Notes: generated by a model from the sequence alone, not told the origin. A stretch of DNA of 60,992 nt from Candidatus Vogelbacteria bacterium RIFOXYD1_FULL_51_18 (GCA_001823095.1 MHTL01000011.1:1-60992); one strand, 5' to 3'; positions 1 through 13,618 are shown, counted from the stretch's first letter. Made by a program: numbers and translations.

Positions 1-110
1 TCGCCCGAGCGTAGCGAGGTGCGACCATGGCGAACGAGGTAGTAACACGTAGGAACGTACCCCCGAGTCGGGCATAATCAGCCGAAAGGTTGAACAATTC
101 CCGATGGTCT

Positions 111-241
111 GTCAGTGCAGAGCACTGACCGCAGAATAACGCGGAATAGACGCAGAAGTACGCAGAAGAATACAGATTGTATTTTTCGGCGAAATTCAGC
201 GTACAGTCTGCGTATGTCCGCGGCCAATGTTCTGCATTGGC
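111..241 (+). repeat. 16S insertion 1 (V2 region): hairpin + long ACGCAGA-repeat imperfect hairpin + hairpin
   Basis: Extra ~130 nt between CCCGATGGTCT and AGTAAAGATTTATCGC; flanking hairpins GTCAGTGC/GCACTGAC and GCCAATG/CATTGGC; central CGCAGAA repeats facing TTCAGCG/TCTGCG repeats; no ORF. Confidence 0.9.
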
Positions 242-1444
242 AGTAAAGATTTATCGCTCGGGGAGCGGCCTGCGCAGTATCAGCTAGTTGGTAGGGTAAC
301 GGCCTACCAAGGCTATGACGCTTAGGGGAGGTGAGAGCCTGACCCCCACCGATGGGACTGAGACACGGCCCATACACCTACGGGTGGCCGCAGTCGAGAA
401 TCTTCCGCAATGGACGAAAGTCTGACGGAGCGACGCCGCGTGGTGGATGAAGTCCTTCGGGACGTAAACACCTTTTATGAGGGAGGAAGTCATTGACGTT
501 ACCTCATGAATAAGGACCTGCTAAACTCGTGCCAGCAGCAGCGGTAATACGAGTGGTCCAAGCGTTATCCGGAATCACTGGGCGTAAAGGGTGTGTAGGT
601 GGCACTGTTAGTCTCTTGTTAAAGCTCCCGGCTCAACCGGGAAAAGGCGAGAGAAACGGCAGCGCTCGAGGGCGCGAGAGGCGTACGGAACTATAGGAGT
701 AGGGGTGAAATCCGTTGATACCTATGGGAACACCACATGCGAAGGCAGTACGCTGGCGCGCACCTGACACTGAAACACGAAAGCGTGGGTAGCGAACGGG
801 ATTAGATACCCCGGTAGTCCACGCCCTAAACGATCTTCACTAGCTTTTCGGAGTATCGACCCTCTGAGAGGCGAAGCTAACGCGTTAAGTGAAGCGCCTG
901 GGAAGTACGAGCGCAAGCTTAAAACTCAAAAGAATAGACGGGGACTCGCACAAGCGGTGGATCATGCGGTTTAATTCGATGCTAAACGAAGAACCTCACC
1001 AGGGCTAGAAATCCAAGCGAAGTTCCAGCGAAAGTTGGGATGTCTCACAAGGACGGTTGGACAGGTGTTGCATGGCTGTCGTCAGTTCGTGGTTTGAATT
1101 GTTCCCTTAAGTGGGGTAACGAACGCAACCCTTGCCGCGTGTTACAAGTGTCACGTGGGACTGTCCGCCCTAGGCGGAAGGAAGCGAGGATGACGCCAAG
1201 TCAGCATGACCCTTGATGTCCTGGGCTACACGCATGATACAATGGCTGCAACAGAAGGTCGCGACGGCACTAAGCCCGAGCCAATCCCCAAATGCAGCCC
1301 CAGTTCGGATTGAGGTCTGCAACTCGACCTCATGAAGCCGGAATCGCTAGTAATCGCAGGTCAGCTATACTGCGGTGAATACGTTCTCGAGTCTTGTACT
1401 CACTGCCCGTCAAGTCAAGGGAGCCGGGAGTACCCGAAGTTCCT

Positions 1445-1595
1445 CCACTTTGTTCGCAAGCGAACAAAGTGGCGCAGACAAACGCAGACTGTACGCAGAA
1501 TTACGCAGACTCAAAGAAAGTTTTCTTTTTTCAGCGACTTTCTGTGTTTATTCAGCGTTATTCAGCGCCATTTTACAAACTTGTTTGCAAAGTGG
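1445..1595 (+). repeat. 16S insertion 2 (tip of helix 44, V9): inverted copy of the insertion-1 element
   Basis: Extra ~150 nt enclosed by CCTCCACTTTG (1442-1452)/CAAAGTGGAGG (1588-1598); 1470-1503 is the near-exact reverse complement of 192-226. Confidence 0.9.
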
Positions 1596-1861
1596 AGGGC
1601 CTACGGTAAGCTCGGTGACAGGGATTAAGTCGTAACAAGGCACGGCTAGCGGAAGCTGGTCGTGGAATTCTTCCGAAGGAAACACGTTCGTCTTGTCACA
1701 AGCAGGATGGACTTATCGTCGATGTTCTGTACCTCGTACGAGTGCAGAACCGAGTGATGGCTCTAGTACTCTATACAACAGTGGGCTGGCCCTACTACAT
1801 CCGCTTCGCGGATTACGAAGGGCAAGTGAGAATGGAACAGGAGAAAGTGCGCTTTTTTTGT

Positions 1862-1890
1862 TTGTCAGGTACAGTACTTTTTGCTATAGT
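1862..1890 (+). promoter_or_regulatory. sigma70-type promoter for tRNA-Ile
   Basis: TTGTCA (1862-67), 17 nt, TATAGT (1885-90), 13 nt before the tRNA. Confidence 0.7.
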
Positions 1891-1903
1891 TTGCGCGACA
1901 TGC

Positions 1904-1978
1904 GCGAGTGTAGTTCAGTGGTAGAACGCTGTCCTGATAAGACAGAGGTCGAAGGTCCGATTCCTTCCACTCGCACCA
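1904..1978 (+). tRNA. tRNA-Ile(GAT)
   Basis: Acceptor GCGAGTG/CACTCGC, anticodon arm CTGTC-CTGATAA-GACAG, T arm GAAGG-TCCGATT-CCTTC, encoded CCA. Confidence 0.97.
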
Positions 1979-2118
1979 AAATCTGACTTTCAGAAAATTG
2001 ACCGACTTTTTTGTATTTTGCAAAGCAAAATGAGCCGCAGAGATTCTTGCCCTTGCCCCACTCCACCCATGCGCGGGCAAGTTTATGGAACTCCCTTTGA
2101 TTAAATCAGAATATTTTG

Positions 2119-2173
2119 GTAACATTATATTGTGTTTAGGGCTTTCAATAAGTATATCACAATTTAATGTTAC
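2119..2173. promoter_or_regulatory. 16-bp inverted repeat upstream of the XRE gene, probable operator pair
   Basis: GTAACATTATATTGTG (2119-2134) and CACAATTTAATGTTAC (2158-2173): 15/16 complementary, 23-nt spacer. Confidence 0.6.
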
Positions 2174-2182
2174 TAATCTATT

Positions 2183-2395
2183 ATGGCAGAGTCAAGTAAA
2201 ACCAACATAGGCAAAACTGTAAAGAAATTAAGAGAGAAACTGGGCATATCGCAGGAAAAACTTGCTCGCCTTGCTGACGTTTCCAATAATACAGTTGTTA
2301 ATATTGAGGCGGGCAAACAAGATAATCCGACAATCGAAACCTTGAAGAAGGTCGCCAATGCCCTGCAAGTCGGGGTTGATGATTTAATTAAATGA
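2183..2395 (+). CDS. XRE-family HTH regulator (C-protein-like)
   Basis: KKLREKLGISQEKLARLADVS...NIEAG...NPTIETLKKVANAL; ATGA overlap with the methyltransferase. Confidence 0.92.
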   Translation: MAESSKTNIGKTVKKLREKLGISQEKLARLADVSNNTVVNIEAGKQDNPTIETLKKVANALQVGVDDLIK

Positions 2396-3411
2396 CTATG
2401 GCAAACGGAAACGGCAAAAAATTCAAATTCATAGACCTGTTCGCTGGCATTGGCGGCATCCGTATTGCTTTTGAACGTGCGGGAGGCAAATGCGTTTTTA
2501 CTTCTGAATGGGACGAGCCGTGCCAAGTCATGTATGAAGCTAATTTTGGCGAAAGACCTTTTGGCGATATTACAAAAATCATTGCAGATGAAGTGCCAGA
2601 TCACGAAATTTTGACCGGAGGATTTCCGTGCCAAGCGTTTAGTATTATCGGCAATGGGCGCGGTTTTGCAGATACACGAGGAACTTTATTTTTTGATGTT
2701 GAACGAATTTTGAGAGCGAAACAGCCAAAAGCGTTTTTGTTGGAGAATGTGAAGCAACTCACAACGCACGATGATGGCAGAACATTCAAGGTTATTTTAG
2801 AACACTTGGAAAACTTGGGTTATTTCGTTCACTATAAAGTCCTCAACGGACTTGATTTTGGAGTGCCGCAAAAAAGGGAACGAATAATGATTGTTGGGTT
2901 CAAAGAAAATTATCCTTTTGAATTTCCGAGAAATGGCGCGGAAACAAAAACGCTTTCGGACATTTTAGAGCCAGAGCACCAAATTGATAAAAAACATTTT
3001 TTGAGCGATTACTTCCGTCAAAAACTCCAACGAAAACTAAAAGAGCAGGGAAAGAAAATCATGACTCGCCCCGTCGTTATTCACGAAAATAAGGGCGGCA
3101 ATTTAGGTATACATCCTTTTTCTACCGCTTTGCGCGCAAACGGCTCATACAATTATGTTACTGTGAACGGCGAACGCCGACTTACTCCGAGGGAAATGTT
3201 GCGTTTGCAGGGCTACCCCGATACTTTCAAAATGGTTGTGCCTGACACGCAGGTTAGAAAACAAGCTGGTAACAGTGTGGTTATTCCTAAAATTGAAGCC
3301 GTTGCGCGCGCAATGGTTCAAGCAATGAGCCAAAAGCCGCAACGCAAGCCGGTTCAGTCCGATTTATTCGCAACAGAAGAAAAAATAGAAAAAATATATG
3401 CGCACAAATAA
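2392..3411 (+). CDS. DNA (cytosine-5)-methyltransferase (HaeII-like cognate)
   Basis: Motif I FIDLFAGIGG, IV GGFPCQAFS, VI ENV, VIII QKRERI, IX RRLTPREMLRLQG, X QAGNSV. Confidence 0.97.
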   Translation: MTMANGNGKKFKFIDLFAGIGGIRIAFERAGGKCVFTSEWDEPCQVMYEANFGERPFGDITKIIADEVPDHEILTGGFPCQAFSIIGNGRGFADTRGTLFFDVERILRAKQPKAFLLENVKQLTTHDDGRTFKVILEHLENLGYFVHYKVLNGLDFGVPQKRERIMIVGFKENYPFEFPRNGAETKTLSDILEPEHQIDKKHFLSDYFRQKLQRKLKEQGKKIMTRPVVIHENKGGNLGIHPFSTALRANGSYNYVTVNGERRLTPREMLRLQGYPDTFKMVVPDTQVRKQAGNSVVIPKIEAVARAMVQAMSQKPQRKPVQSDLFATEEKIEKIYAHK

Positions 3412-4468
3412 TAATCTATCGAAAAAGGCGTTGGATTTGGTGATACGCAAATCGCGCGTTCATTTGTACAAGCCAATTCAGATTGCTGAAATTTTATATC
3501 ACCACAGAACAGAGCGTGGTTTGGATTTGAGCGATTTGCAGTCATATCGCAACATTTCTAAGCGTTGGCGAGACGAAGTTTCTTTACTTTTGGTTGGACG
3601 GCGAAGCACTTCAAGCCAAAAATATCAGGATAATGTTTTTGAGGCCAACGCCATGCCGCCGGAACTGCTTACAAAACTTGGAGAAATAAACAAGAAAAGC
3701 AAGGGTGTTGTTGAAGCATATATTTACAAAGCGTTGGAAGCGCGTCTCTCGTCCGTTCGAGAGGTTGAGGACTATATTAGAAAATCAACACCGGACACTT
3801 TCGATCTCAAAAAATTGGTTTCTATTTTTCAAACTACGCCCGGACTGCGTCGTAGCGTAGACAAAATGTACGAAATTTTGGTTTACGCCCTTTTTACGAC
3901 AATCGTCCGCGCATTAAAAGCGCAAGTAACTTTGGAGATTGGTAATAAAGATAAGGAAATTTTGAAGGACTTTGAGCGATTTATAAAAATGGTTCTCGGC
4001 ATTGACGCAAAACAAACCCGACTTGTTTCGCCCGCCGCGCTGTATCGCGTCGGCGTAACAAATGCCTCGGACAGGGGTTTGGATATCTGGGCCAACTTTG
4101 GCCCGGCAATTCAAGTTAAACACCTTACACTCACCCCGGAACTTATGGAGGACATCGCGGATGACATAACTTCAGACAGGATTGTAATTGTTTGTATTGA
4201 TACCGAACGAGAAACGATTGAGACATTGCTCAAACAAGTCGGGTGGAGTGAACGAATACAGGGCGTTATTACCATTAACGATCTGGATGATTGGTATAAG
4301 CTTTGTTTGAGTAAAAAATACAGGGCTAATCTCGGCGCAAAATTACTGCAAGATGTTGGGCGAGAATTTGCCGCAGAATTTCCGTCAAGCAAAGAAATTG
4401 CGCCATTTATGGCAAAGCGCGGATACGACAAAATTGTTATGCCCTCTGATTGGCAAATTCAAATATAG
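3398..4468 (+). CDS. HaeII-family type II restriction endonuclease
   Basis: N-terminal KALDLVIRKSRVHLYKPIQIAEILY and GVTNASDRGLDIWANFGPAIQVKH recalled as RE_HaeII family; coupled to a C5 MTase. Confidence 0.85.
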   Translation: MRTNNNLSKKALDLVIRKSRVHLYKPIQIAEILYHHRTERGLDLSDLQSYRNISKRWRDEVSLLLVGRRSTSSQKYQDNVFEANAMPPELLTKLGEINKKSKGVVEAYIYKALEARLSSVREVEDYIRKSTPDTFDLKKLVSIFQTTPGLRRSVDKMYEILVYALFTTIVRALKAQVTLEIGNKDKEILKDFERFIKMVLGIDAKQTRLVSPAALYRVGVTNASDRGLDIWANFGPAIQVKHLTLTPELMEDIADDITSDRIVIVCIDTERETIETLLKQVGWSERIQGVITINDLDDWYKLCLSKKYRANLGAKLLQDVGREFAAEFPSSKEIAPFMAKRGYDKIVMPSDWQIQI

Positions 4469-4475
4469 CGTATGT

Positions 4476-4880
4476 ATGGACACTGTTTCAAAACAAAAGC
4501 GAAGCGAAATAATGTCTCGGATAAAAAGTCGAGACAGCAAGATTGAGACATTATTTCGCAAAGAGCTTTGGAAACTTGGCTTTCGCTACCGCAAAAACTC
4601 CGGCAAATACTTTGGGAAGCCGGATATTGTTTTGAAACAGAGGAAAGTAGTTATTTTTATTGATTCCTGCTTTTGGCACGGGTGTAAAAAGCATTGTCGC
4701 ATTCCAACCGTTCGCAAAAGTTATTGGTTGAAAAAAATTGCAAGAAATGTGGCGAGGGACAAAGAGGTAAAGAAGCACTACAAAAAACAGGAATGGAAAA
4801 TTTTTAGAATTTGGGAACATAAGATCAAGTTAAGTAAGGATAGAGCAGTAGCGGGTATTGTTGAAAGGATAGCCAGCTAG
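4476..4880 (+). CDS. vsr: Very-short-patch repair endonuclease
   Basis: MDTVSKQKRSEIMSRIKS, GKPD, FIDSCFWHGC, IWEH; start re-assigned to ATG 4476. Confidence 0.95.
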   Translation: MDTVSKQKRSEIMSRIKSRDSKIETLFRKELWKLGFRYRKNSGKYFGKPDIVLKQRKVVIFIDSCFWHGCKKHCRIPTVRKSYWLKKIARNVARDKEVKKHYKKQEWKIFRIWEHKIKLSKDRAVAGIVERIAS

Positions 4881-4937
4881 TTAAGTAAATACACACTTTG
4901 GGTAAATTAGCGGCTTGATAAGCCGCTAAATAAAACT

Positions 4938-5135
4938 ATGGACGAAAATAAAAAACAAGACAACGAAATAATTTTTTCTGTAACTGTTGAGAATTTACAA
5001 AACGAAGCAACTAATAGAATTGGCAGAAAATTGACGGGATATGAATTGTATACTGCCATAAAGGGTGTAGAATCTGGTTTGTCGTTTGATATTGATACGA
5101 TATTCAAGACTGCCATCGAGGAAGCCGTTGAATAA
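4938..5135 (+). CDS. Small acidic hypothetical protein (65 aa)
   Basis: Clean ATG-TAA ORF co-oriented in the island; no recognised motif. Confidence 0.6.
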
Positions 5136-5428
5136 AAAAATCAAAAACGAAACTTTTGGAATGGGTAGCGCGCCGCCGAAGTCCAATTAAAATTTTTCTA
5201 GCTTTCCCGTATAATCCATACCACCCGCAACCATACGAGCGATTTACGGAGCAAGGCGTTTTGGATCGAGGAAAAGAATTTTTGATTGGCAAGGAATACT
5301 GGAATTTTCTCGGAGGCGAAAATACCTTTGAGGAATTATTTACGTTGTTTGATGATGTCGGTAAAAAATTCAAAGAGAAAATTCAGTCGAAAATTAAAGA
5401 AGTGGCCCGCGCTAAAATGTCCGGATAG
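5132..5428 (+). pseudogene. 3' remnant of a second type II restriction endonuclease (TdeIII/MjaII-like)
   Basis: Frame opens after TGA at 5129-31 with no good start: SKTKLLEWVA...FLAFPYNPY...LIGKEYWNFLGGENTFEEL, recalled as the C-terminus of this family. Confidence 0.6.
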
Positions 5429-5434
5429 GTATTT

Positions 5435-6193
5435 ATGAAAGTTGATTTTATCAATTCAGAAAGAGTAAAAGTCGGCGACGAGGAACTGATTTACTTTATG
5501 CACCCCAACATGTTGAGAGACAAGCTTATTGAAGCCGTTGAGAAGATTGGGGCGCAAAAATTCTTTTCCAGTCCGGAAGAAAATGTTAAAAAGGCGCGGG
5601 AAAATGTCGCTGAATACTTTTTTGTTTTAGGTCTTAAAAAAGACAGCGGGCAAGATTGGTTCTTAATGCAACCCAAAAAAGACCCACCCGATTTTATTCT
5701 GATGACCGTAGCGGCCAATCCAATAACAATTACTCTTGACCATTTCGAGTTGGTTGAAATACCCGGTCGGTGTAAATCATTCGAGGAAATGTTGGAGATT
5801 GTCCGCGGTAAATTAAATAAGGGATATGCAGGGAAATATCATTTATTGATTTTTGTTAATCACGAAAAAAGTAAGGAGTGGATAAATACGCTTCATCAAC
5901 AAATACAAGATTTTGCTCCATTCAAGACAGTATGGACAGTTCATCTTGTGTGGTACAAAGGAAAGAGTAGTTTATACGGAAGCGTAGTAAATCGCTTGCG
6001 ACCATATCCCACAAGATCAATTGAAGTTGCTCTAGATGACGAGGCGTTACGCCAAAGTTCACCATTGCCCGATCATATGGAAGAATTGAAAATTGATGGA
6101 AAGACGTTTATCAATTTCAAACCGGATTTTGTGAAGGAATTGACAATGGCAATGAGAAAATCACTCCTTGCTAGGTCGCAAGCGAGAAGATAA
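5435..6193 (+). CDS. Hypothetical protein, possible PD-(D/E)xK-like nuclease fold
   Basis: 252-aa ORF; spacing E...PKKDPPDF...FELVEI...KLNKGY resembles restriction-endonuclease-like folds (inference). Confidence 0.7.
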   Translation: MKVDFINSERVKVGDEELIYFMHPNMLRDKLIEAVEKIGAQKFFSSPEENVKKARENVAEYFFVLGLKKDSGQDWFLMQPKKDPPDFILMTVAANPITITLDHFELVEIPGRCKSFEEMLEIVRGKLNKGYAGKYHLLIFVNHEKSKEWINTLHQQIQDFAPFKTVWTVHLVWYKGKSSLYGSVVNRLRPYPTRSIEVALDDEALRQSSPLPDHMEELKIDGKTFINFKPDFVKELTMAMRKSLLARSQARR

Positions 6194-6530
6194 TCGCCGC
6201 CCAAAATCCCGTCCGTCCGAGCGAGGGTGCGGCGGAGGTGTGGGGGGAATTCCGCCATTCCCTTGCAAAAAACAGAGGCCAGCCCCGCGCCCTGCTCGTT
6301 CAGAGCAGAAGCCAGCAAAAAAGTTTTCTTTTCCTTTTACCTGCCCGCCGAAGCCTCGGCGCAGGCGGGGAAGAAAAAATCGGGCGCGCGCAAATCAGGA
6401 AATGCGAAGAAAACTTTTTTGCTGGGTGGCAAGTGCCAGCGAGCGGCGGCGGGGTGCCTGCCCGCCAAAGCTTTAGCGTCGGAGGGGCTTCCTTGGTCTG
6501 GTTTCGTTCAGGAATTTCGGATAAAATGAG
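6194..6530. repeat. GC-rich structured non-coding tract closing the R-M island
   Basis: 19-bp perfect inverted repeat 6312-6330/6407-6425; direct repeat CCTGCCCGCC-RAAGC-YTYRGCG at 6340 and 6457. Confidence 0.65.
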
Positions 6531-6636
6531 TTCGAGCCAAACTGTAAAGACACACCAATCATTAAGCGGCGAGTTATAAACAATTTTAATCCTAGGCAAT
6601 TGCTGTAGGGGGTATTTTTGCTACAATGCACAGGTT

Positions 6637-7023
6637 GTGGAAAAAATTACCAAGCAAAACTATGAGGCGCTGGGGAGTTGGGGCATACTCACGAGCCTTG
6701 ACTTGCACGGCTGTAACGGCGAGACCATCCGGAGTGCAGAGAAGATCCGTGAGTTTACCGTAGCGCTCTGCGAGCTCATTGGGGTGACGCGCTTTGGCGA
6801 GCCGACCGTCGTGCACTTTGGCGAACGTGAAGAAATTGCCGGCTACTCACTCGTCCAGCTCATAGAGACCTCACTGGTCTCCGGGCACTTTGCAAATGCA
6901 ACAAATACTGTGTACTTGGATATCTTTTCCTGCTCGTACTACGATGCCGATACGGCCGTAGAGTTCTCAAAAAAGTTTTTTGAGGCGCAGGATGCGACGG
7001 TACATACTCTATTAAGAAAATGA
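6637..7023 (+). CDS. speD: S-adenosylmethionine decarboxylase-family proenzyme (pyruvoyl-dependent)
   Basis: SLDLHGC...GYSLVQLIETSLVSGHF...YLDIFSC; GTG start. Confidence 0.85.
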   Translation: MEKITKQNYEALGSWGILTSLDLHGCNGETIRSAEKIREFTVALCELIGVTRFGEPTVVHFGEREEIAGYSLVQLIETSLVSGHFANATNTVYLDIFSCSYYDADTAVEFSKKFFEAQDATVHTLLRK

Positions 7024-7043
7024 CCCAGCTGGGTCATTTTCTT
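7014..7043. terminator. 30-bp perfect palindrome between convergent genes (bidirectional terminator)
   Basis: AAGAAAATGACCCAG|CTGGGTCATTTTCTT, overlapping the speD stop. Confidence 0.75.
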
Positions 7044-7063
7044 CCTGCTTTTTAATTGTCCTT

Positions 7064-7270
7064 TTATACGGCAGGTGCTGCAGGGGCAGCGGGAGCGGCA
7101 GGAGCTGCCGGTGCGCAGGAACACTTCCCATCGGCCTCGTTGCAGGCGGCGCACTTGGGCATGCAGTGATCTGCGCCGCAGGCGTGCGCCGCGTCGTGCT
7201 CGGCGCTCTCTGTTCCGCACATATCGCACTTGTAGCCACTCGTTGCTCCGTCACATGTTTTGCAATTCAT
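7064..7270 (-). CDS. Cys/His-rich microprotein, metallothionein- or zinc-finger-like
   Basis: 68 aa, 10 Cys + 3 His in first 52 aa (CxxC x3, CxC), (PAA)n tail; TACACT -10 upstream, terminator downstream. Confidence 0.8.
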   Translation of the reverse strand: MNCKTCDGATSGYKCDMCGTESAEHDAAHACGADHCMPKCAACNEADGKCSCAPAAPAAPAAPAAPAV

Positions 7271-7336
7271 AACTCTTTTGGTGTTTAACCAGTAATGACG
7301 ACCTCCTGGCAGTGTAGCACACTAGTGCCGAAGAGA

Positions 7337-7371
7337 CCCATACCGAACGTGCCGAACACGTTCGGTATGGG
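7337..7371. repeat. 15-bp perfect hairpin 3' of tRNA-Leu
   Basis: CCCATACCGAACGTG-ccgaa-CACGTTCGGTATGGG. Confidence 0.7.
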
Positions 7372-7387
7372 CGGGGGACTTGAACTG

Positions 7388-7469
7388 TGGGTGTGGAGGG
7401 ACTCGAACCCTCACGGATTGCTCCATACGTCTCTGAAACGTACGCGTATACCAATTCCGCCACACACCC
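7388..7469 (-). tRNA. tRNA-Leu(CAG)
   Basis: Reverse complement: GGGTGTG acceptor, GGAATTGGTA D loop, TACGT-TTCAGAG-ACGTA, long variable arm, GAGGG-TTCGAGT-CCCTC; CCA not encoded. Confidence 0.95.
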
Positions 7470-7594
7470 TCACCACTTCGGCGTGCGAAAATAAGTATAG
7501 TGAAATAATTGACGTCTGTCTATTATTGTAGTACGGTGGATGCGGCATACACCAGCAGCTGCTGGTTCTGATCTTTGTAATAAGGAGAACAAGT

Positions 7595-8350
7595 ATGGAC
7601 TTAACAGAAGCACGCAAGCGCATTATCGTAGCAGTGGATGTTCCCGATCTTGATAAGGCATGGGAAATCACAGACAAGTTGGACAGTACCGGAGTGCTCT
7701 TCAAAATCGGGCTTGAGCTCATTGTACCCTTTGGCATAGGGGAAATTCTCAATCGGTTGACAACCGACCAAATTGAGAATGATCGTTTCTTCATTGACGC
7801 TAAACTCTGCGACATCCCAAACACTGTCGGCGCCGCAGCACGGCAGATTGCCATGTGCGATGTGGGCATGTTTAACGTCCACGCAAGCGCGGGAGCGGAC
7901 GCAATGGCCGTGGCAGTGCAGAATCGCGGAGTCTCTAAGGTATTGGCCGTAACCATACTCACCTCGCTCTCAAACGAGCAGTGCAAGGAGATCTACGGCA
8001 ACGAGCCGAACGACGCGGTACTGCTCCTCGCCCTCTTAGCGCACACAGCGGGAGTGCAAGGGCTCATCTGCTCTCCCAAGGAGCTCACCATGCTCCATGA
8101 ACACCGTGTAGCAGAAGATATGCTCAAGATTACTCCCGGAGTCCGTCCCACATGGGCGGCGGCAAATGATCAAAAGCGAGTGATGACGCCCGCAGAGGCA
8201 ATCCGTGCGGGTGCAACGCACTTAGTCATTGGACGTCCTATTACCAAACCGCCAGAAAGTTTAGGCGGTGAGCTGTACGAGCGAATGGAAAAAGCGGTTG
8301 ATCTCATTGCTGCAGAAATCGCCGGAGCGCCTGCGGAGGTGGTGGCATGA
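7595..8350 (+). CDS. pyrF: Orotidine-5'-phosphate decarboxylase
   Basis: IIVAVD, FKIG, DAKLCDIPNTV (DxKxxD), NVHAS, ITPGVRP, DQKRVMTP, VIGRPIT. Confidence 0.97.
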   Translation: MDLTEARKRIIVAVDVPDLDKAWEITDKLDSTGVLFKIGLELIVPFGIGEILNRLTTDQIENDRFFIDAKLCDIPNTVGAAARQIAMCDVGMFNVHASAGADAMAVAVQNRGVSKVLAVTILTSLSNEQCKEIYGNEPNDAVLLLALLAHTAGVQGLICSPKELTMLHEHRVAEDMLKITPGVRPTWAAANDQKRVMTPAEAIRAGATHLVIGRPITKPPESLGGELYERMEKAVDLIAAEIAGAPAEVVA

Positions 8351-8466
8351 ATTAAAGCAAGGAGCATCAAAACCTGATCCGCATCCTACCACTCTTAGAA
8401 GCAGTTAAAGCTGCGCAGTATGGTCCGTTTCTCCCTCTGCACCATCGGCCCTGTCCGGCACTATAG
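8347..8466 (+). pseudogene. Decayed ORF translationally coupled to pyrF (possible pyrE 5' remnant)
   Basis: GGAGGT (8335-40) + 6 nt + ATG overlapping the pyrF TGA, stop at codon 3 (TAA), then open: SKEHQNLIRILPLLEAVKAAQYGPF. Confidence 0.4.
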
Positions 8467-8486
8467 TCAGGACGGGGGTTTTTTTT
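8449..8486 (+). terminator. Intrinsic terminator after pyrF unit
   Basis: CCCTGTCC...GGACGGGG followed by a T8 run. Confidence 0.7.
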
Positions 8487-8502
8487 GTGATAGAATATGC
8501 CT

Positions 8503-9402
8503 ATGAATCAGCGAGGATTTGGGCTCATGCCCGCCATCGGCGCTGTGAGTTTTGTGATCATCTTTGTCGCGGGCTATTTTGCGGTGCGCACGCTCTCCCC
8601 GGTGTCAGCAGTTCCTGCACCTCTTACAGAGCAGAGCACAACAACAAATACTGCCGCACTGCGCACAGCGGTCAGCGGCACCATTGACCCTCGCGATATT
8701 GAGAGCGTCTTATTTACCGTTGGCGCGGCGCCCTCGGTGCGCGTAACCGTTGATACACCGACTGCCGGAGTGGTGGTGAAGGTTACCGACCCCAAGGGAG
8801 GGACCTACTCTGCGATCGCTAATACCGGCAATGCCGACAGCAAGGAGGGAGAGCGCTACATCATAGAGCGCAAACCAGACGGCACATATCGCATTACCAT
8901 TATTGCTCCAGGCGGAACAACTCCCGGCGAGTATCGTGTAACTGTTGAGAATCCAAGCGGGAGTAGCCCGGCGCCTTATACGGTTGACATTCCCGATGCG
9001 CCGGTTGTTGTGACTGATACGCAGAATGTCGGCGGGAGCAGTGCAAACATAGAGGTTTCCATTACTGTAGGGGAGACTATTGCCCTCTCGGGTTTTGTGG
9101 CAATTGCAGACGCGCAAGTGATTGCCACTATCACTGCGCCCAGCGGGACCCAAACATCGCTTTTACTTGCCGAAGAGGAGGGGAGTCTGGGCACCTACAG
9201 CGGGACCTTTAACGGCGCCACGGAGAGCGGCACCTACAGTGTTGAATACGTTATTCAAGGTGAAAACTCCGCGGAAGACGAATTTTACAAAACTTCGTAC
9301 GACCAATTTACCGTCGCCGGCGGGACCGTAACCGGTTCAGGAGGGGTAAATAAAAAATTTGACATTAACCGCGGCGATGAGATACAACTCATTGGTTACT
9401 AG
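8503..9402 (+). CDS. Pilin-like (class III signal) surface protein with Ig-like beta domains
   Basis: MNQRGF-GLMPAIGAVSFVIIFVAGYFAV then Thr/Gly/Val-rich beta repeats; start 8503 or 8497. Confidence 0.75.
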   Translation: MNQRGFGLMPAIGAVSFVIIFVAGYFAVRTLSPVSAVPAPLTEQSTTTNTAALRTAVSGTIDPRDIESVLFTVGAAPSVRVTVDTPTAGVVVKVTDPKGGTYSAIANTGNADSKEGERYIIERKPDGTYRITIIAPGGTTPGEYRVTVENPSGSSPAPYTVDIPDAPVVVTDTQNVGGSSANIEVSITVGETIALSGFVAIADAQVIATITAPSGTQTSLLLAEEEGSLGTYSGTFNGATESGTYSVEYVIQGENSAEDEFYKTSYDQFTVAGGTVTGSGGVNKKFDINRGDEIQLIGY

Positions 9403-9436
9403 AGCAAGAGGCGTTTTTCCCGTATACTACATATAT

Positions 9437-9703
9437 ATGCCGACTAAATCATGGAAGAACTGGATACTCCTTGCGGCAGGGCTCGTAACGCTCATCATGC
9501 CCTATTTGGGATTCCCGCGCGGTGTTAAAGACTTTTTCTTTGTCCTTGCCGGCTTGGCAATACTCGCGATTGCCATCAATCTCCTCTGGCCATACACAGC
9601 TCCTGCGTCCGTACGTCATCCTAAAAAACCCCGCCCGCGCCGAGAGGCGGTGCCCGAGATTACGCCGCCGATAGAAACGCCTCATGAAGAGGAGGCTCAT
9701 TAA
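9437..9703 (+). CDS. Small two-helix membrane protein
   Basis: Two hydrophobic segments around YLGFPRGVKD; TATACT 8 nt upstream of ATG 9437. Confidence 0.75.
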   Translation: MPTKSWKNWILLAAGLVTLIMPYLGFPRGVKDFFFVLAGLAILAIAINLLWPYTAPASVRHPKKPRPRREAVPEITPPIETPHEEEAH

Positions 9704-10862
9704 TCCCATCACCGGTTACGCACTCTTTCTCGCAGGGCTCGTGTTTTTTGCTGCGCTCTTATTTGTGGCGCCATGGTCCCAGTCTGCGCTAGTCTATTCC
9801 ACTGATGACGGATTTGCTATTGCCAGTACTACCCCGCCCACTCCACCAGAACCTCCCAAACCAAAACATATTGAAACACCGGAGTCCGTGAAGGCAATTT
9901 ACATGTCCAGCTGGGTGGCGGGCACGCCCTCCGTGCGCGAGGGGCTCATCAAACTTGCCGAAGAGACCGAGATCAATGCCATCATGATTGATGTGAAGGA
10001 CTATACCGGCCGCATCTCCTTTGCCGTCAACGACCCCGCGCTTGCGCGCTACGGCTCCGCCGACCCCACGCGCATCAAAGATATTGACGCGCTCATTGCG
10101 GAGCTTCACGAAAAAAATATTTACATAATTGCGCGTATTGCCGTTTTCCAAGACGACTTCCTTGCGCGCAAGCGGCCCGACCTTGCCGTCAAGCGCGCTT
10201 CCACAGGCAACATCTGGCTGGATCATAAAAAGATCGCGTGGCTGGATACCAGCGCTCCCGAGGTCTGGGATTACAGTTTTTTGGTTGCGCAGGAAGCGGT
10301 GAAGCGCGGCTTTGACGAAATAAATTTGGACTACATCCGCTTCCCCTCCGATGGAGCAGTCTCCGACACAAGCTATCCCTACTACCGCCCGAGCGAAGAG
10401 AGCAAGGCAGAAGCTGTGCGGCGCTACTACGCCTACATCGGGGAGCGCAAGGAGGAATTAGGCGTGCCCGTCTCGGGAGACCTCTTTGGCATGGTGCTCA
10501 CCGAGACCTCTGACATGAACATCGGGCAAATTTTGGAAAACGGTTTGGAATATTTCGACTATGTGGCGCCGATGATCTACCCCTCGCATTACCCGGACGG
10601 CTTTAATGGGTGGAAGAAGCCGGCAACCGTGCCCTACGAGCTTGCCAAGTATGTGCTGGATGCGGGCGTCGCGCGATCCGTTGCGGCGAGCACGACACCG
10701 GAAAAAATTCGCCCATGGCTGCAGGACTTTGACCTCGGCGCCGACTACACGGCGGAGATGGTGCGCGCGCAGATCAAGGCTACCTATGATGCAGGGCTTG
10801 ACTCATGGATGCTCTGGGCTCCCTCAAACAAATACACCCGCGCCGCCTTGCTGGAGGAGTGA
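9684..10862 (+). CDS. Putative glycoside hydrolase (DUF4015-like), N-terminal membrane anchor
   Basis: VKAIYMSSW, EINAIMIDVKDYTG, GFDEINLDYIRFP, DYVAPMIYPSHY, RPWLQDF. Confidence 0.85.
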   Translation: MKRRLINPITGYALFLAGLVFFAALLFVAPWSQSALVYSTDDGFAIASTTPPTPPEPPKPKHIETPESVKAIYMSSWVAGTPSVREGLIKLAEETEINAIMIDVKDYTGRISFAVNDPALARYGSADPTRIKDIDALIAELHEKNIYIIARIAVFQDDFLARKRPDLAVKRASTGNIWLDHKKIAWLDTSAPEVWDYSFLVAQEAVKRGFDEINLDYIRFPSDGAVSDTSYPYYRPSEESKAEAVRRYYAYIGERKEELGVPVSGDLFGMVLTETSDMNIGQILENGLEYFDYVAPMIYPSHYPDGFNGWKKPATVPYELAKYVLDAGVARSVAASTTPEKIRPWLQDFDLGADYTAEMVRAQIKATYDAGLDSWMLWAPSNKYTRAALLEE

Positions 10863-10903
10863 TGGAAGTGAGACTCGCCGCGGCGAGTCTCACTTCCATC
10901 ACT
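10858..10903. repeat. 46-bp perfect palindrome, GGAAGT...ACTTCC family
   Basis: AGTGATGGAAGTGAGACTCGCCG|CGGCGAGTCTCACTTCCATCACT at the gene stop. Confidence 0.9.
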
Positions 10904-10973
10904 TGCGCGTGCACGCTACACTTGGCGCATGGCAAAAGAACCTCTGGCAGCGCGGCTGCGGCCGAAAGGTGGC

Positions 10974-11002
10974 TTGACTTTGTATTGCAGGTTTGCTATA
11001 AT
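10974..11002 (+). promoter_or_regulatory. sigma70-type promoter for the 206-aa gene
   Basis: TTGACT-17 nt-TATAAT; leader has GATACCTTGAAAA (11010-22), a hairpin and AAGGAG. Confidence 0.8.
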
Positions 11003-11072
11003 GGTAAAAGATACCTTGAAAAGGCCCTAATTCGCGACGGCGAAGGGGTAAAAAACCAAGTAGAAGGAGCAG

Positions 11073-11693
11073 ATGATGAAAACCATCAGTCATGGTCAAA
11101 CCCGCGCTCTTGTTGGGTCGTTTCTCATTGATACGCCGTGGGACGACATCGAAGTCCCCGATGATGATGACTTTGTTCAATCTTTCATCCAACTTCGGCC
11201 AGAAGAACGCGGGAGAAAGTTTGCTGATTTCATCAGAGACAGGTTCCAGATTGTTTCCACTGCGGTTAAACATGCGGTTAAACACCTCATCAATCTCGAC
11301 ACCATCCCCTTCACCCCCAACGGCTGGAGTGTAGAGGAACACCAGGAGGGAGGAATGCTTGAGTGGAACTCCAACAAAGTCTCCCTCCACCTCTCTCCCA
11401 ACCAAGAAGGGAACATATACATTAAGGGCAACGAGCTCCGCACAGAGCTCAAGGGCAAACCTGTCTTGAATGCAAACGTTCTAGACTACCTCCTTATCCA
11501 CCAAGACCTCATCCCCGAGGAGTGGAAAGACCAGAGCATCTTCTTCTGGGGCACCATCTACTGCGGCCTGGACGGCACCCTGTTTGTCCGTTACCTCTAC
11601 TGGCACGGCGGCTGGTGGCACTGGGACTTCCTCTGGCTTGGCAGCGATTGGTTCTGCCACCGCCCGGCTCTCGTTCTCGCAAGTGGGCAATGA
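11073..11693 (+). CDS. Probable DGR-type variable protein (CLec-like C-terminus)
   Basis: C-terminus FWGTIY...LFVRYLYWHGGWWHWDFLWLGSDWFCHRPALVLAS; 11561-11680 has only 10 A in 120 nt and variable codons are NNC. Confidence 0.65.
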   Translation: MMKTISHGQTRALVGSFLIDTPWDDIEVPDDDDFVQSFIQLRPEERGRKFADFIRDRFQIVSTAVKHAVKHLINLDTIPFTPNGWSVEEHQEGGMLEWNSNKVSLHLSPNQEGNIYIKGNELRTELKGKPVLNANVLDYLLIHQDLIPEEWKDQSIFFWGTIYCGLDGTLFVRYLYWHGGWWHWDFLWLGSDWFCHRPALVLASGQ

Positions 11694-11746
11694 GAGCTTA
11701 GTACCTTACGCTTCAGCCCTTAACCCTGAACACCTAGATCTTTAGA

Positions 11747-11786
11747 CCCCGTCCGCGACACGCATGTGTTGAGATGGGGCTTTTTG
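11747..11786 (+). terminator. GC hairpin with T-tract after the 206-aa gene
   Basis: CCCCGTC...GATGGGG-CTTTTT with internal ACAC-GCAT-GTGT. Confidence 0.6.
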
Positions 11787-11872
11787 TTTGCATTTTACAT
11801 CGTCATTTTAATTTTTGATATTTCATTTTTGATTTAATATAGCCCGCAATTATGGTATAATACGCGCCAACT

Positions 11873-13618
11873 ATGGCCGACCTCCTTAAACAGGGTATGG
11901 CATATCTTGCCGAGACCGACTTTCGCGGCGCTAAGACGCGTTTTGGCATTAAAAACAGCGACCGCGCGCGGCATGTCTACGTCATCGGCAAGACCGGCAT
12001 GGGCAAGAGCACCTTGCTGGAGAACATGGCAATCCAAGATATGGCCAACGGCGAGGGGCTCGGCTTCATAGACCCTCACGGCGGCACTGCGGAAAAACTC
12101 TTGGATTACATCCCCGAGGAGCGCACCAAGGATGTGATTTACTTTGCCCCCTACGACCTTGACTACCCCATCTCCTTCAACGTGATGGAGGACGTGGGCA
12201 AGGACCAGCGCTACCTTGTGGCAAACGGGCTGATGTCCTCGTTCAAAAAAATCTGGCCCGACGTATGGAGCGCGCGCATGGAGTACATCCTCAACAACAC
12301 TCTCCTCGCGCTCCTTGAATACCCCGACTCAACCCTCCTCGGCGTCAATCGCATGTTGAGCGACAAAAATTATCGCACACAGGTAGTCAATAATATTTCA
12401 GACCCATCTGTGAAGGCTTTTTGGCTAGATGAGTTTGCTAAGTATAACGAGCGCTACATGCAGGAAGCGGGCGACGCGATTAAAAACAAAATCGGTCAGT
12501 TCACCAGTAATCCCCTCATCAGAAATATTATTGGCCAGCCCAAGTCCAGCTTTGACATCCGCGAGGTGATGGACGGGAAGAAGATTCTCATCATGAACCT
12601 CTCCAAGGGCCGCGTGGGCGAGCAGAACGCCTTTCTCCTCGGCGGCATGCTCATCACCAAGATTTATCTCGCCGCCATGAGCCGCGCCAATGCTACGACG
12701 GCGACACTCCAAGCGCTTCCATCCTTCTACCTCTTTGTAGACGAGTTCCAGTCCTTCGTCAACGACTCTTTTGCCGACATCCTTGCCGAGGCGCGCAAAT
12801 ACAAGCTCAATCTCACCATCGCGCACCAATATATTGACCAGATGCCCGAGACGGTGCAGAGCGCGGTCTTTGGCAATGTGGGCACGACCATCGCCTTCCG
12901 CGTGGGTCCCTTTGATGCCGAGAAGCTGGAAAAGATTTTCAGCCCTAAGTTTACTGAAGAGGATCTCGTTAATCTCGGCTTTGCCCAGATTTACCTCACT
13001 CTTATGATAGATGGCGTAGGCTCGCCGTCCTTCTCTGCGACCACGCTTGCGCCGATAGAAAATGCCATGCAGGAGCTCCACGCGGGACTCAAAGAGCAAA
13101 TCATCGCTTCCTCTCGCGCGCAGTACGCGCATCCGCGCGAGGAGGTGGAGAAGGCGATTACCGAGTGGCACAAGGTGGCGCTCTCCTCAATAGAGAAGGC
13201 GGATAGAGCGGGAAGGGTCAATCCGCCGGCCGGCGGACAAGGGCCAAGTAAAAAGTATCATACAGGAAGTCGGACTTCGGGGGCGGCGGAAGTCCGACTT
13301 CCGTTCCAGAAGCGCGCGACTCTCATTAAGGAGGCGGCGCAGGACCGCACGCGAGAGCTCTCCCTAGAAGCGCTCGTTGCGGCGAAGAACAAGGAGACAG
13401 TGAAAGCAACGCCACAGGCAAAAGAAGATCTCAAGTCTTTTTTGCAAGACGTTATTAAGTCAGTCCCCAAAGAAAAGAAAGAAGAAGTGCCAAGTATCAA
13501 GGATCAAGCAGACCAGAGGTCGGACTTCAAGGGCGGCGGAAGTCCGACTTCTGATTCCCAAGAAATTCCAGAAGACGAGCTCCGGCATATGCTTGAGGTA
13601 CCTAAAAGAAACGGGTAG
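11873..13618 (+). CDS. VirD4/TraG/TrwB-like (T4CP/HerA superfamily) ATPase
   Basis: Walker A IGKTGMGKS, Walker B LFVDEFQ, EARKYKL, HQYIDQ; low-complexity C-terminal tail. Confidence 0.9.
   Translation: MADLLKQGMAYLAETDFRGAKTRFGIKNSDRARHVYVIGKTGMGKSTLLENMAIQDMANGEGLGFIDPHGGTAEKLLDYIPEERTKDVIYFAPYDLDYPISFNVMEDVGKDQRYLVANGLMSSFKKIWPDVWSARMEYILNNTLLALLEYPDSTLLGVNRMLSDKNYRTQVVNNISDPSVKAFWLDEFAKYNERYMQEAGDAIKNKIGQFTSNPLIRNIIGQPKSSFDIREVMDGKKILIMNLSKGRVGEQNAFLLGGMLITKIYLAAMSRANATTATLQALPSFYLFVDEFQSFVNDSFADILAEARKYKLNLTIAHQYIDQMPETVQSAVFGNVGTTIAFRVGPFDAEKLEKIFSPKFTEEDLVNLGFAQIYLTLMIDGVGSPSFSATTLAPIENAMQELHAGLKEQIIASSRAQYAHPREEVEKAITEWHKVALSSIEKADRAGRVNPPAGGQGPSKKYHTGSRTSGAAEVRLPFQKRATLIKEAAQDRTRELSLEALVAAKNKETVKATPQAKEDLKSFLQDVIKSVPKEKKEEVPSIKDQADQRSDFKGGGSPTSDSQEIPEDELRHMLEVPKRNG
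13265..13302. repeat. GGAAGT-family palindrome inside the ATPase CDS (copy 1)
   Basis: GGAAGTCGGACTTC-10 nt-GAAGTCCGACTTCC, read as GSRTSGAAEVRLP. Confidence 0.85.
13514..13553. repeat. GGAAGT-family palindrome inside the ATPase CDS (copy 2, different frame)
   Basis: CAGAGGTCGGACTTC-10 nt-GAAGTCCGACTTCTG, read as QRSDFKGGGSPTS. Confidence 0.85.

Follow-up and report, generated by a model that had tools for sequence, protein, structure and literature searches.

Why the 16S ribosomal RNA (rRNA) gene of an ultra-small groundwater bacterium should contain extra hairpins, and where such hairpins come from, are the questions raised by the genome of Candidatus Vogelbacteria bacterium RIFOXYD1_FULL_51_18, a member of the Candidate Phyla Radiation (CPR). 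Here we analysed a stretch of 60,992 nucleotides (nt) from this genome (GCA_001823095.1 MHTL01000011.1:1-60992; hereafter, the window), which begins inside a 16S gene that has one hairpin insert in variable region 2 (V2) and another in helix 44. The inserts are probably miniature copies, devoid of an open reading frame (ORF), of a dispersed palindromic element whose full-length relatives carry an ORF of about 125 residues that encodes a GxxExxY/PD-(D/E)XK protein. The two inserts share one architecture with a family that is found in intergenic DNA, coding sequences, 23S rRNA and an RNase P RNA gene of other CPR bacteria, and the arrays that define this family are linked to the GxxExxY ORF.

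A covariance alignment to the Rfam model RF00177 leaves two stretches unaligned: 114 nt for the V2 insert, at model position 188/192, and 138 nt for the second, which falls at the helix 44 tip (model position 1439/1446). The V2 insert lies in the hairpin directly 5′ of the conserved UAAAG, which, as we read the alignment, would be helix 9 in Escherichia coli numbering. The elements as a whole span positions 111–241 (V2) and 1445–1595 (helix 44) of the window, and both begin with a local hairpin, followed by four CGCRGA boxes, a loop, the complementary set of four TCNGCG boxes and, last, a second local hairpin (parts in Table 1). The box starts are 10, 11 and 10 nt apart in the 5′ and 3′ arms of both inserts, and 19–21 nt separate the arms. 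An earlier reading of this DNA, made from the sequence alone (hereafter, the sequence-only reading), had described a hairpin, a long periodic hairpin and a further hairpin; that layout holds, and the period of 7–10 nt that it gave is to be replaced by one of 10–11 nt. It had also proposed that the inserts be folded, and both form strong hairpins (−71.1 kcal/mol for V2 and −81.3 kcal/mol for helix 44, with z about −10 and −9). In a thermodynamic comparison, each copy is more stable, by 9–18 kcal/mol, as one extended hairpin than as three separate ones. As the same reading held, the inserts are neither introns nor endonuclease-coding: they are members of a set of operon copies only 131–154 nt long, and no Rfam match to group I or group II introns was found in positions 1–12000 of the window or in L121:6800-9900, an independently assembled contig that carries the full 16S gene. 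The same scan does detect Intron_gpI at two other loci (L188 and L190). In close relatives, the V2 loop is only 6 nt long (GGTCT-CGCAAG-AGTAAAG) and the tip of helix 44 only 16 nt (ATCCGCATAAGCGGGT), both in DNA and in complementary DNA (cDNA), so the ribosome does not need the inserts.

The two inserts are also related to one another. Positions 186–222 are complementary to positions 1473–1509 at 32 of 37 sites (86%), much as the sequence-only reading had proposed for the V2 3′ arm and the helix 44 5′ arm, without the indel that it had invoked. The reverse-complement likeness that it saw between the remaining arms was recovered as well, with 32 of 41 sites (78%) between 130–170 and 1527–1567. 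The best local score is 73, whereas 2000 shuffles averaged 16.1 and reached 31 at most; the similarity of the arms is thus beyond chance. Positions 130–166 and 1473–1509 are 81% identical in direct orientation too, since each insert is a palindrome built from a single repeated box. Across the 13 spacer positions between boxes, the helix 44 5′ arm agrees with the reverse-complemented V2 3′ arm at 11 of 13, and the reverse-complemented helix 44 3′ arm agrees with the V2 5′ arm at 9 of 13 (hand count), whereas all other pairs of arms, including the two arms of one insert, match at 3–7 of 13. These matches exceed what the shared box provides and thus show that the V2 and helix 44 inserts are mutual inversions, which bears out the opposite orientations first proposed.

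The inserts are genuine and not the product of misassembly, a risk that the sequence-only reading had raised. In six groundwater runs, each from a different sample, unitigs with zero differences run across the V2 insert at its two junctions. Five independently assembled contigs (Joint Genome Institute 3300025015 and 3300025311, and three European Nucleotide Archive assemblies), fetched via the neighbouring Dcm methyltransferase gene, carry both inserts in identical form. The helix 44 insert is spanned by a 247-nt unitig in run X1 and by no unitig in five other Logan runs; we treat the missing unitigs as losses from the unitig sets because the five assemblies contain the insert. Over 2400 nt, four of the five contigs are 99.96–100% identical to the window and the fifth (L124) is a 99.4% strain variant, with 15 differing columns (13 substitutions and 2 one-base indels) that all fall at 443–493 and 1156, none of them within an insert. 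An assembly artefact or a chimera at a repeat would suit a window that starts within a repeat copy and an insert that is missing from the unitigs of five runs; given V2 junctions crossed without a difference in six samples, and copies that are all identical in five contigs from different samples and assemblers, we regard the chance of such an artefact as negligible. Contamination by a SMART oligonucleotide or an adapter was considered as the origin of the ACGCAGA repeats and rejected, as the period is wrong and the repeats occur at genome-level depth in six samples. In L124, 14 of the differing columns lie in the hairpin of variable region 3 (443–493) and one lies at 1156; the cluster resembles a recombined patch or a series of compensatory changes.

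V2 and helix 44 are two of four sites of this element in the operon, all with one architecture: the leader, the tip of helix 6, V2 (helix 9) and helix 44. The last 27 nt of the helix 6 copy open the window, and the whole copy, which Rfam aligns as a 127-nt insertion at model position 80/83, is present in L121, as is the leader copy (box arrays at L121:7514 and L121:7234, respectively). These two copies are exact duplicates that take in the local hairpins; they lie 280 nt apart and are also present in the 99.4% variant L124. A promoter-like TTGACT-16-TATAAT occurs at L121:7137-7164 and the leader copy begins about 40 nt later, so this copy is presumably part of the pre-rRNA leader; as each of the two is palindromic, the leader and helix 6 copies could pair together. 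The 61-kb window contains no further copy outside the 16S gene. Reads at 80% likeness reveal at least one extra locus with foreign flanks, the depth of which scales with that of the organism (about twice in three runs); its flanks did not locate it among the fetched loci. The sequence-only reading had counted a lack of further copies against its idea; further copies do exist, as two more in the operon, at least one read-supported locus and dozens in other genomes.

The family in other genomes was surveyed in two ways: a genome scan for three ACGCRGA boxes, with each species represented by one genome, which returned at least 120 loci, and a metagenome scan with a four-box pattern that had the spacing built in, which returned at least 120 loci with at least 134 arrays. 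About 20 of the genome-scan matches listed have the palindromic form of boxes, loop and complementary boxes, and they come from many phyla. The matches from CPR (Patescibacteria) that were checked by eye have all four boxes, with spacings of 10, 11–12 and 10 nt in all except 2 of about 15. Among the matches listed from both scans, 183 arrays have at least four boxes; the partner arm lies within 60 nt in 56 of these and at 351–700 nt in 8, and 73 have none within 2.5 kilobases (kb). A perfect hairpin of at least 7 base pairs (bp) stands at the outer end of 16% of arrays, compared with 0.8% of random positions. Stop-free frames of host proteins contain 62 of 157 arrays; from conserved motifs, we read the hosts as housekeeping proteins that include UvrA, UvrB, RecG, Mfd, AtpA, IleRS, GatB, LepA, Tgt, TsaD and a cysteine desulfurase. 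Other arrays lie inside 23S rRNA (L188, L130 and L201), inside 16S rRNA (L191) or in the internal transcribed spacer directly after the 16S 3′ end (L212). The copies have no neighbouring transposase and no consistent neighbour; their flanks are housekeeping genes, including accC, pfk, murB/ddl, murF and an aminotransferase. A Liptonbacteria genome from the same aquifer (L085) has two intergenic copies with the full build of hairpin, core and hairpin. This genome was ruled out as that of the window's organism, as its depth is 2–3× against 16–80× in four runs.

Another organism has a copy within an RNase P RNA gene (L149:4844-5149, minus strand; RF00010 over the full model, E = 3e-8, under the gathering score); in direct orientation, this copy and the V2 insert share 73% identity over 138 nt. 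Both of its local hairpins are kept by compensatory changes, with GTCAGTGC/GCACTGAC replaced by GTCAATGC/GCATTGAC on the left and GCCAATG/CATTGGC replaced by GCCAACGC/GCGTTGGC on the right. The inserted element may explain how this RNase P RNA gene escaped standard annotation. Such a copy, flank hairpins included, is hard to reconcile with expansion segments that grew in place, by slippage and palindrome extension at helix tips, with convergence on a GC-box repeat elsewhere. A short tandem unit, sites at which rRNA length commonly varies and the lack of a target duplication would all suit that explanation. However, a four-box 10-11-10 layout with capping hairpins that recurs in at least 180 arrays in many genomes is too specific for it, the inverted pair in the window agrees at 11 of 13 spacer positions, and the arms bracket a nuclease ORF elsewhere; growth in place is therefore very improbable, and close to refuted. 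The local hairpins themselves may be inverted copies of host flank made at insertion, and their outer arm does overlap conserved host codons in gatB and lepA. Against this, nearly the same flank hairpin (GTCAGTGC...GCACTGAC) recurs in 16S, RNase P RNA and 23S copies, and the leader copy bears the flanks of helix 6.

What the arms bracket elsewhere gives the family its probable parent. In gatB (L217) and lepA (L239 and L214), arrays enclose about 125 codons in the host frame without a stop, and the enclosed domain is a complete PF13366 (PDDEXK_3)/TIGR04256 (GxxExxY) match (E = 1e-32 to 6e-36) that cuts the GatB_N or GTP_EFTU match of the host into two pieces. The layout of array, ORF and array was found by tblastn at eight of about 246 loci, four of which have a free-standing ORF: two in Chloroflexi (L010, Thermoflexales; L061, Anaerolineae) and two on metagenome contigs (L202 and L246). 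The free-standing genes lie between housekeeping genes, for example murB and ddl, or upstream of murF. Insertion sites recur: the lepA site after VRM(V)Y in the LepA G domain is common to L214 and L239, and the gatB site after EANISV is common to L133 and L217, such that one genome has the ORF-loaded form at the site where another has an ORF-less array. At their left end, the loaded cassettes have the same local hairpin and 10-11-10 array as the 16S inserts, on which basis we call the 16S copies ORF-less derivatives; no PF13366/TIGR04256 ORF is present between the arms of the copies in the window. The description 'REP/MITE-like' in the sequence-only reading (for repetitive extragenic palindromic sequences and miniature inverted-repeat transposable elements) was thus apt, given that ORF-less palindromes coexist with the same arms around a GxxExxY ORF. 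The arrays that bracket the free-standing genes consist of ACGCAGAT-type decamers, and ORF-less palindromes of these decamers are multi-copy in one genome of Omnitrophota (L040 and L116) and one of Betaproteobacteria (L074 and L103).

Table 1 Coordinates of the 16S gene, the parts of the element copies, the nuclease loci and the adjoining island. Positions without a prefix are in the window.
Feature	Position	Strand	Evidence or remark
16S rRNA gene, 5′ end cut by the window	1..1677	+	Rfam RF00177, 1248 bits, model positions 75-1533
Full 16S gene, independent assembly	L121:7418-9286		Full-length Rfam match
V2 element, left local hairpin (GTCAGTGC-AGA-GCACTGAC)	111..129	+	Sequence; same hairpin in L149 with compensatory changes
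V2 element, 5′ arm, four CGCRGA boxes starting at 130, 140, 151 and 161	130..166	+	
V2 element, apical stem-loop	167..185	+	Fold
V2 element, 3′ arm, TCGGCG, TCAGCG, TCTGCG, TCCGCG, 10-11-10 spacing	186..222	+	
V2 element, right local hairpin (GCCAATG-TTCTG-CATTGGC)	223..241	+	
Helix 44 element, left local hairpin, perfect 13-bp stem	1445..1472	+	Repeat search
Helix 44 element, 5′ arm, four CGCAGA boxes starting at 1473, 1483, 1494 and 1504	1473..1509	+	
Helix 44 element, apical stem-loop	1510..1530	+	Fold
Helix 44 element, 3′ arm, TCAGCG, TCTGTG, TCAGCG, TCAGCG, 10-11-10 spacing	1531..1567	+	
Helix 44 element, right local hairpin	1568..1595	+	
Third copy, last 27 nt, helix 6 tip (variable region 1, V1)	1..27	+	Whole copy L121:7483-7636
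Fourth copy, 16S leader, outside the window	L121:7203-7356		154-nt direct repeat of L121:7483-7636, 100% identity
ORF-loaded loci	L010, L061, L189, L202, L214, L217, L239, L246		
Free-standing GxxExxY genes in inverted ACGCAGAT-type decamer arrays	L010:6268-6808; L061:1-660; L202:6868-7505; L246:528-1031		
Island genes: helix-turn-helix (HTH) controller, Dcm-type methyltransferase, HaeII-family endonuclease, Vsr	2183-4880		PF01381, PF00145, PF09554, PF03852

Each arm is a phased array of four CGCRGA boxes, with spacings of 10-11(12)-10 nt that give every helical turn one box; a short local hairpin usually caps it. We propose that the copies spread as DNA, with a GxxExxY nuclease recognising the phased boxes and mobilising the copies in trans, and that they last only in places that can accommodate a long hairpin, such as solvent-exposed tips of rRNA helices and surface loops of proteins. 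In pre-rRNA, each copy would fold into one extended, imperfect hairpin of about 65–75 bp, which may then be excised like a classical intervening sequence (IVS), leaving the 16S rRNA in pieces, or kept as an expansion segment.

Several observations weigh against this explanation. Mobility is something we infer from distribution: no direct repeats that could be a target-site duplication were seen flanking the four operon copies, and no pair of empty and filled sites was found at the species level. No match to a GxxExxY gene was found by tblastn in the 61-kb window. The exact leader/helix 6 duplicate takes in apparent native helix 6 sequence, which gene conversion or segmental copying fits better than transposition does. 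GxxExxY proteins are not known to bind or cleave any substrate. The only survey found to list the family, one of the PD-(D/E)XK superfamily, enters PDDEXK_3 with its function unknown (PMC3424549). Finally, the box centres differ between strands. On the rRNA-sense strand of both inserts, every 5′ box centre is a purine and the 3′ box centres are often A, which produces A.A, A.G or A.C juxtapositions in the fold; purely DNA-level recognition with two-fold symmetry does not predict such an asymmetry.

This polarity is not confined to the window. In a survey of 41 compact elements, purine–purine centres lie on the host sense strand in 11 of the 13 copies in stop-free frames and on the transcript strand in all 5 informative RNA-gene copies. 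Of the five differences between the two related arms, three are at one of the four box centres (hypergeometric p about 0.005). The polarity is either inherited from sense-oriented, ORF-loaded ancestors or the result of selection on a transcript or single-strand hairpin, and it is the main reason for which two further explanations are kept alive.

In the first of these, the GxxExxY cassettes would be an unrecognised class of prokaryotic mobile element with arrays that are read as a folded single strand, the purine–purine centres would mark hairpins on the transcript strand for excision from pre-rRNA, and the ORF-less rRNA copies would act as protein-assisted IVSs, such that the 16S rRNA would be in four pieces and the leader and helix 6 copies would pair as a 5′ processing stem. 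Taken as a whole, we regard this as doubtful. In the second, which we think quite unlikely, the hairpins are domesticated rRNA modules that function in pre-rRNA or the ribosome and are kept by selection and not as passengers; they could, for example, be docking sites for a processing or assembly factor, with the pairing of leader and helix 6 enclosing the 16S 5′ end. Domestication would account for the polarity in RNA-gene and coding-sequence copies and for the differences on box centres, as well as for four copies per transcription unit that are unchanged in a strain with 15 differing columns elsewhere, and for leader and helix 6 copies that are identical at 154 of 154 positions when other copies are only 42–59% alike. 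Yet many unrelated proteins carry the same arrays, in several reading frames, as does intergenic DNA; the ribosomes of close relatives work with a plain helix 44 tip and V2 loop; and the asymmetry could have been inherited from the loaded ancestors. No sampled word of the V2 insert was found in any RNA run of the index searched, which also speaks against a module retained in the ribosome.

Transcript data bear on what becomes of the ORF-less copies that we favour as the identity of the inserts. In three SOLiD metatranscriptomes from the same study, zero-difference pieces of the 16S gene were assembled as contigs at depths of about 50–70, all within positions 689–1326. Nothing at 96–98% likeness covers 1–256 or 1409–1677 in these data, which are contigs with patchy coverage; the native segments 29–110 and 1597–1677 are uncovered as well, the contigs also skip 449–512, where strains differ, and no insert junction was observed. 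Coverage of 689–1326 only fits the pattern of a 16S rRNA that is cut at helix 9 and helix 44, with the short end fragments lost in library preparation. The evidence leans towards excision over retention, with the two close to evenly balanced. Groundwater metatranscriptomes X11, X15, X16, X19 and X42–X44 do not contain this organism. A wastewater cDNA with a short helix 44 tip was considered as the spliced form and rejected, as it comes from a 98.6% relative in which the tip is also short in DNA.

Among known systems, rRNA IVSs are removed by RNase III, occur in helices 25 and 45 of the 23S rRNA of Salmonella and Yersinia, and carry an ORF (PF05635) in Leptospira and Coxiella. Like these, the inserts are extra stem–loops at the tips of surface helices of rRNA, with ends that pair in a long duplex (Rfam alignments and folds), their distribution is sporadic in a way that suggests horizontal spread, and forms with and without a small ORF exist. 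Unlike IVSs, the element occupies three 16S sites and the leader, its arms are phased arrays of one 6-nt box, and it also occurs in protein-coding genes, RNase P RNA and intergenic DNA; its ORF is of the PD-(D/E)XK (GxxExxY) type and not the four-helix-bundle IVS protein, and excision is only putative here. The Rickettsia palindromic elements, reportedly described by Ogata and colleagues in 2000, resemble it as palindromes of 100–150 nt that a reduced genome tolerates in frame within protein genes and that also occupy its RNA genes and intergenic DNA. Their sequence is unrelated and their host clade different, they lack phased box arrays and, unlike the element here, they have no known ORF-carrying parent.

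With MITEs and with REP sequences or bacterial interspersed mosaic elements—the dependents of insertion sequences and of REP-associated tyrosine transposases (RAYTs; 'REPtrons')—the family shares short, non-coding, multi-copy inverted repeats whose terminal inverted repeats are common to a coding parent element. It differs in that the associated ORF matches no known transposase, and no HUH enzyme was recognised; the putative enzyme is a predicted nuclease of 125 residues, no target-site duplication was found, and the coding version in CPR lacks its own expression signals and is read as part of the host protein. REP sequences are hairpins of 20–40 nt served by HUH-type RAYTs, whereas the elements here are 131–154 nt long, have local hairpins that vary by copy and have no RAYT nearby. 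Inteins and intron-borne homing endonuclease genes are similar in placing a selfish nuclease gene in conserved genes and rRNA, at a recurrent host site (lepA in L214 and L239), and introns of groups I and II in CPR rRNA carry LAGLIDADG genes (PMC11270868). The element, in contrast, has no Hint or splicing domain and no ribozyme fold, and its 16S copies have no ORF.

Insertions occur in about half of CPR 16S genes and in most CPR 23S genes, and a survey of them, with 380 16S and 348 23S genes, recognises as classes the introns of groups I and II, and LAGLIDADG, GIY-YIG and 23S_rRNA_IVP ORFs (PMC11270868). Short (<200 bp), ORF-less insertions that are not introns were left as 'uncharacterized' in that survey, with the suggestion that they may be IVSs of the RNase III type; it mentions no palindromes, repeats or PD-(D/E)XK ORFs (PMC11270868). 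Full-text literature searches on the family names, and on palindromic elements lying in frame in Patescibacteria, gave no relevant result, and the nuclease cassette and mobile element are apparently undescribed. The present case indicates that at least some of the uncharacterized short inserts in CPR rRNA belong to a dispersed element family with a nuclease-coding parent form that also invades protein genes and RNase P RNA, and it gives PF13366/TIGR04256, a family of unknown function, a testable role. The occurrence of the same hairpin in rRNA, in mRNA and in untranscribed DNA is a natural experiment that could tell selection on the DNA from selection on the transcript. In practical terms, three inserts lengthen this 16S rRNA by about 400 nt and alter V1, V2 and helix 44, which affects amplicon surveys and rRNA-based classification of these bacteria.

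The surroundings of the gene have features of their own. Just upstream of the promoter-like site, L121:6985-7092 contains a tRNA-like sequence ending in ...GGTTCAAATCCAACCGGCCCTCACCA and a terminator-like hairpin; neither ARAGORN nor Rfam calls a tRNA there. Downstream of the 16S gene lies a tRNA at 1904–1975, which from its anticodon loop we read as tRNA-Ile(GAU), and no 23S gene is present in the remaining 59 kb of the window. The 16S gene and this tRNA are directly followed by a restriction–modification island. In the NCBI assembly of this organism, GCA_001004355.1, contig LCQX01000002.1 has no 16S gene and ends about 300 nt upstream of the HTH gene of this island, at about position 1880 of the window within the spacer between 16S and tRNA; the assembly presumably broke at the rRNA operon or at its repeats.

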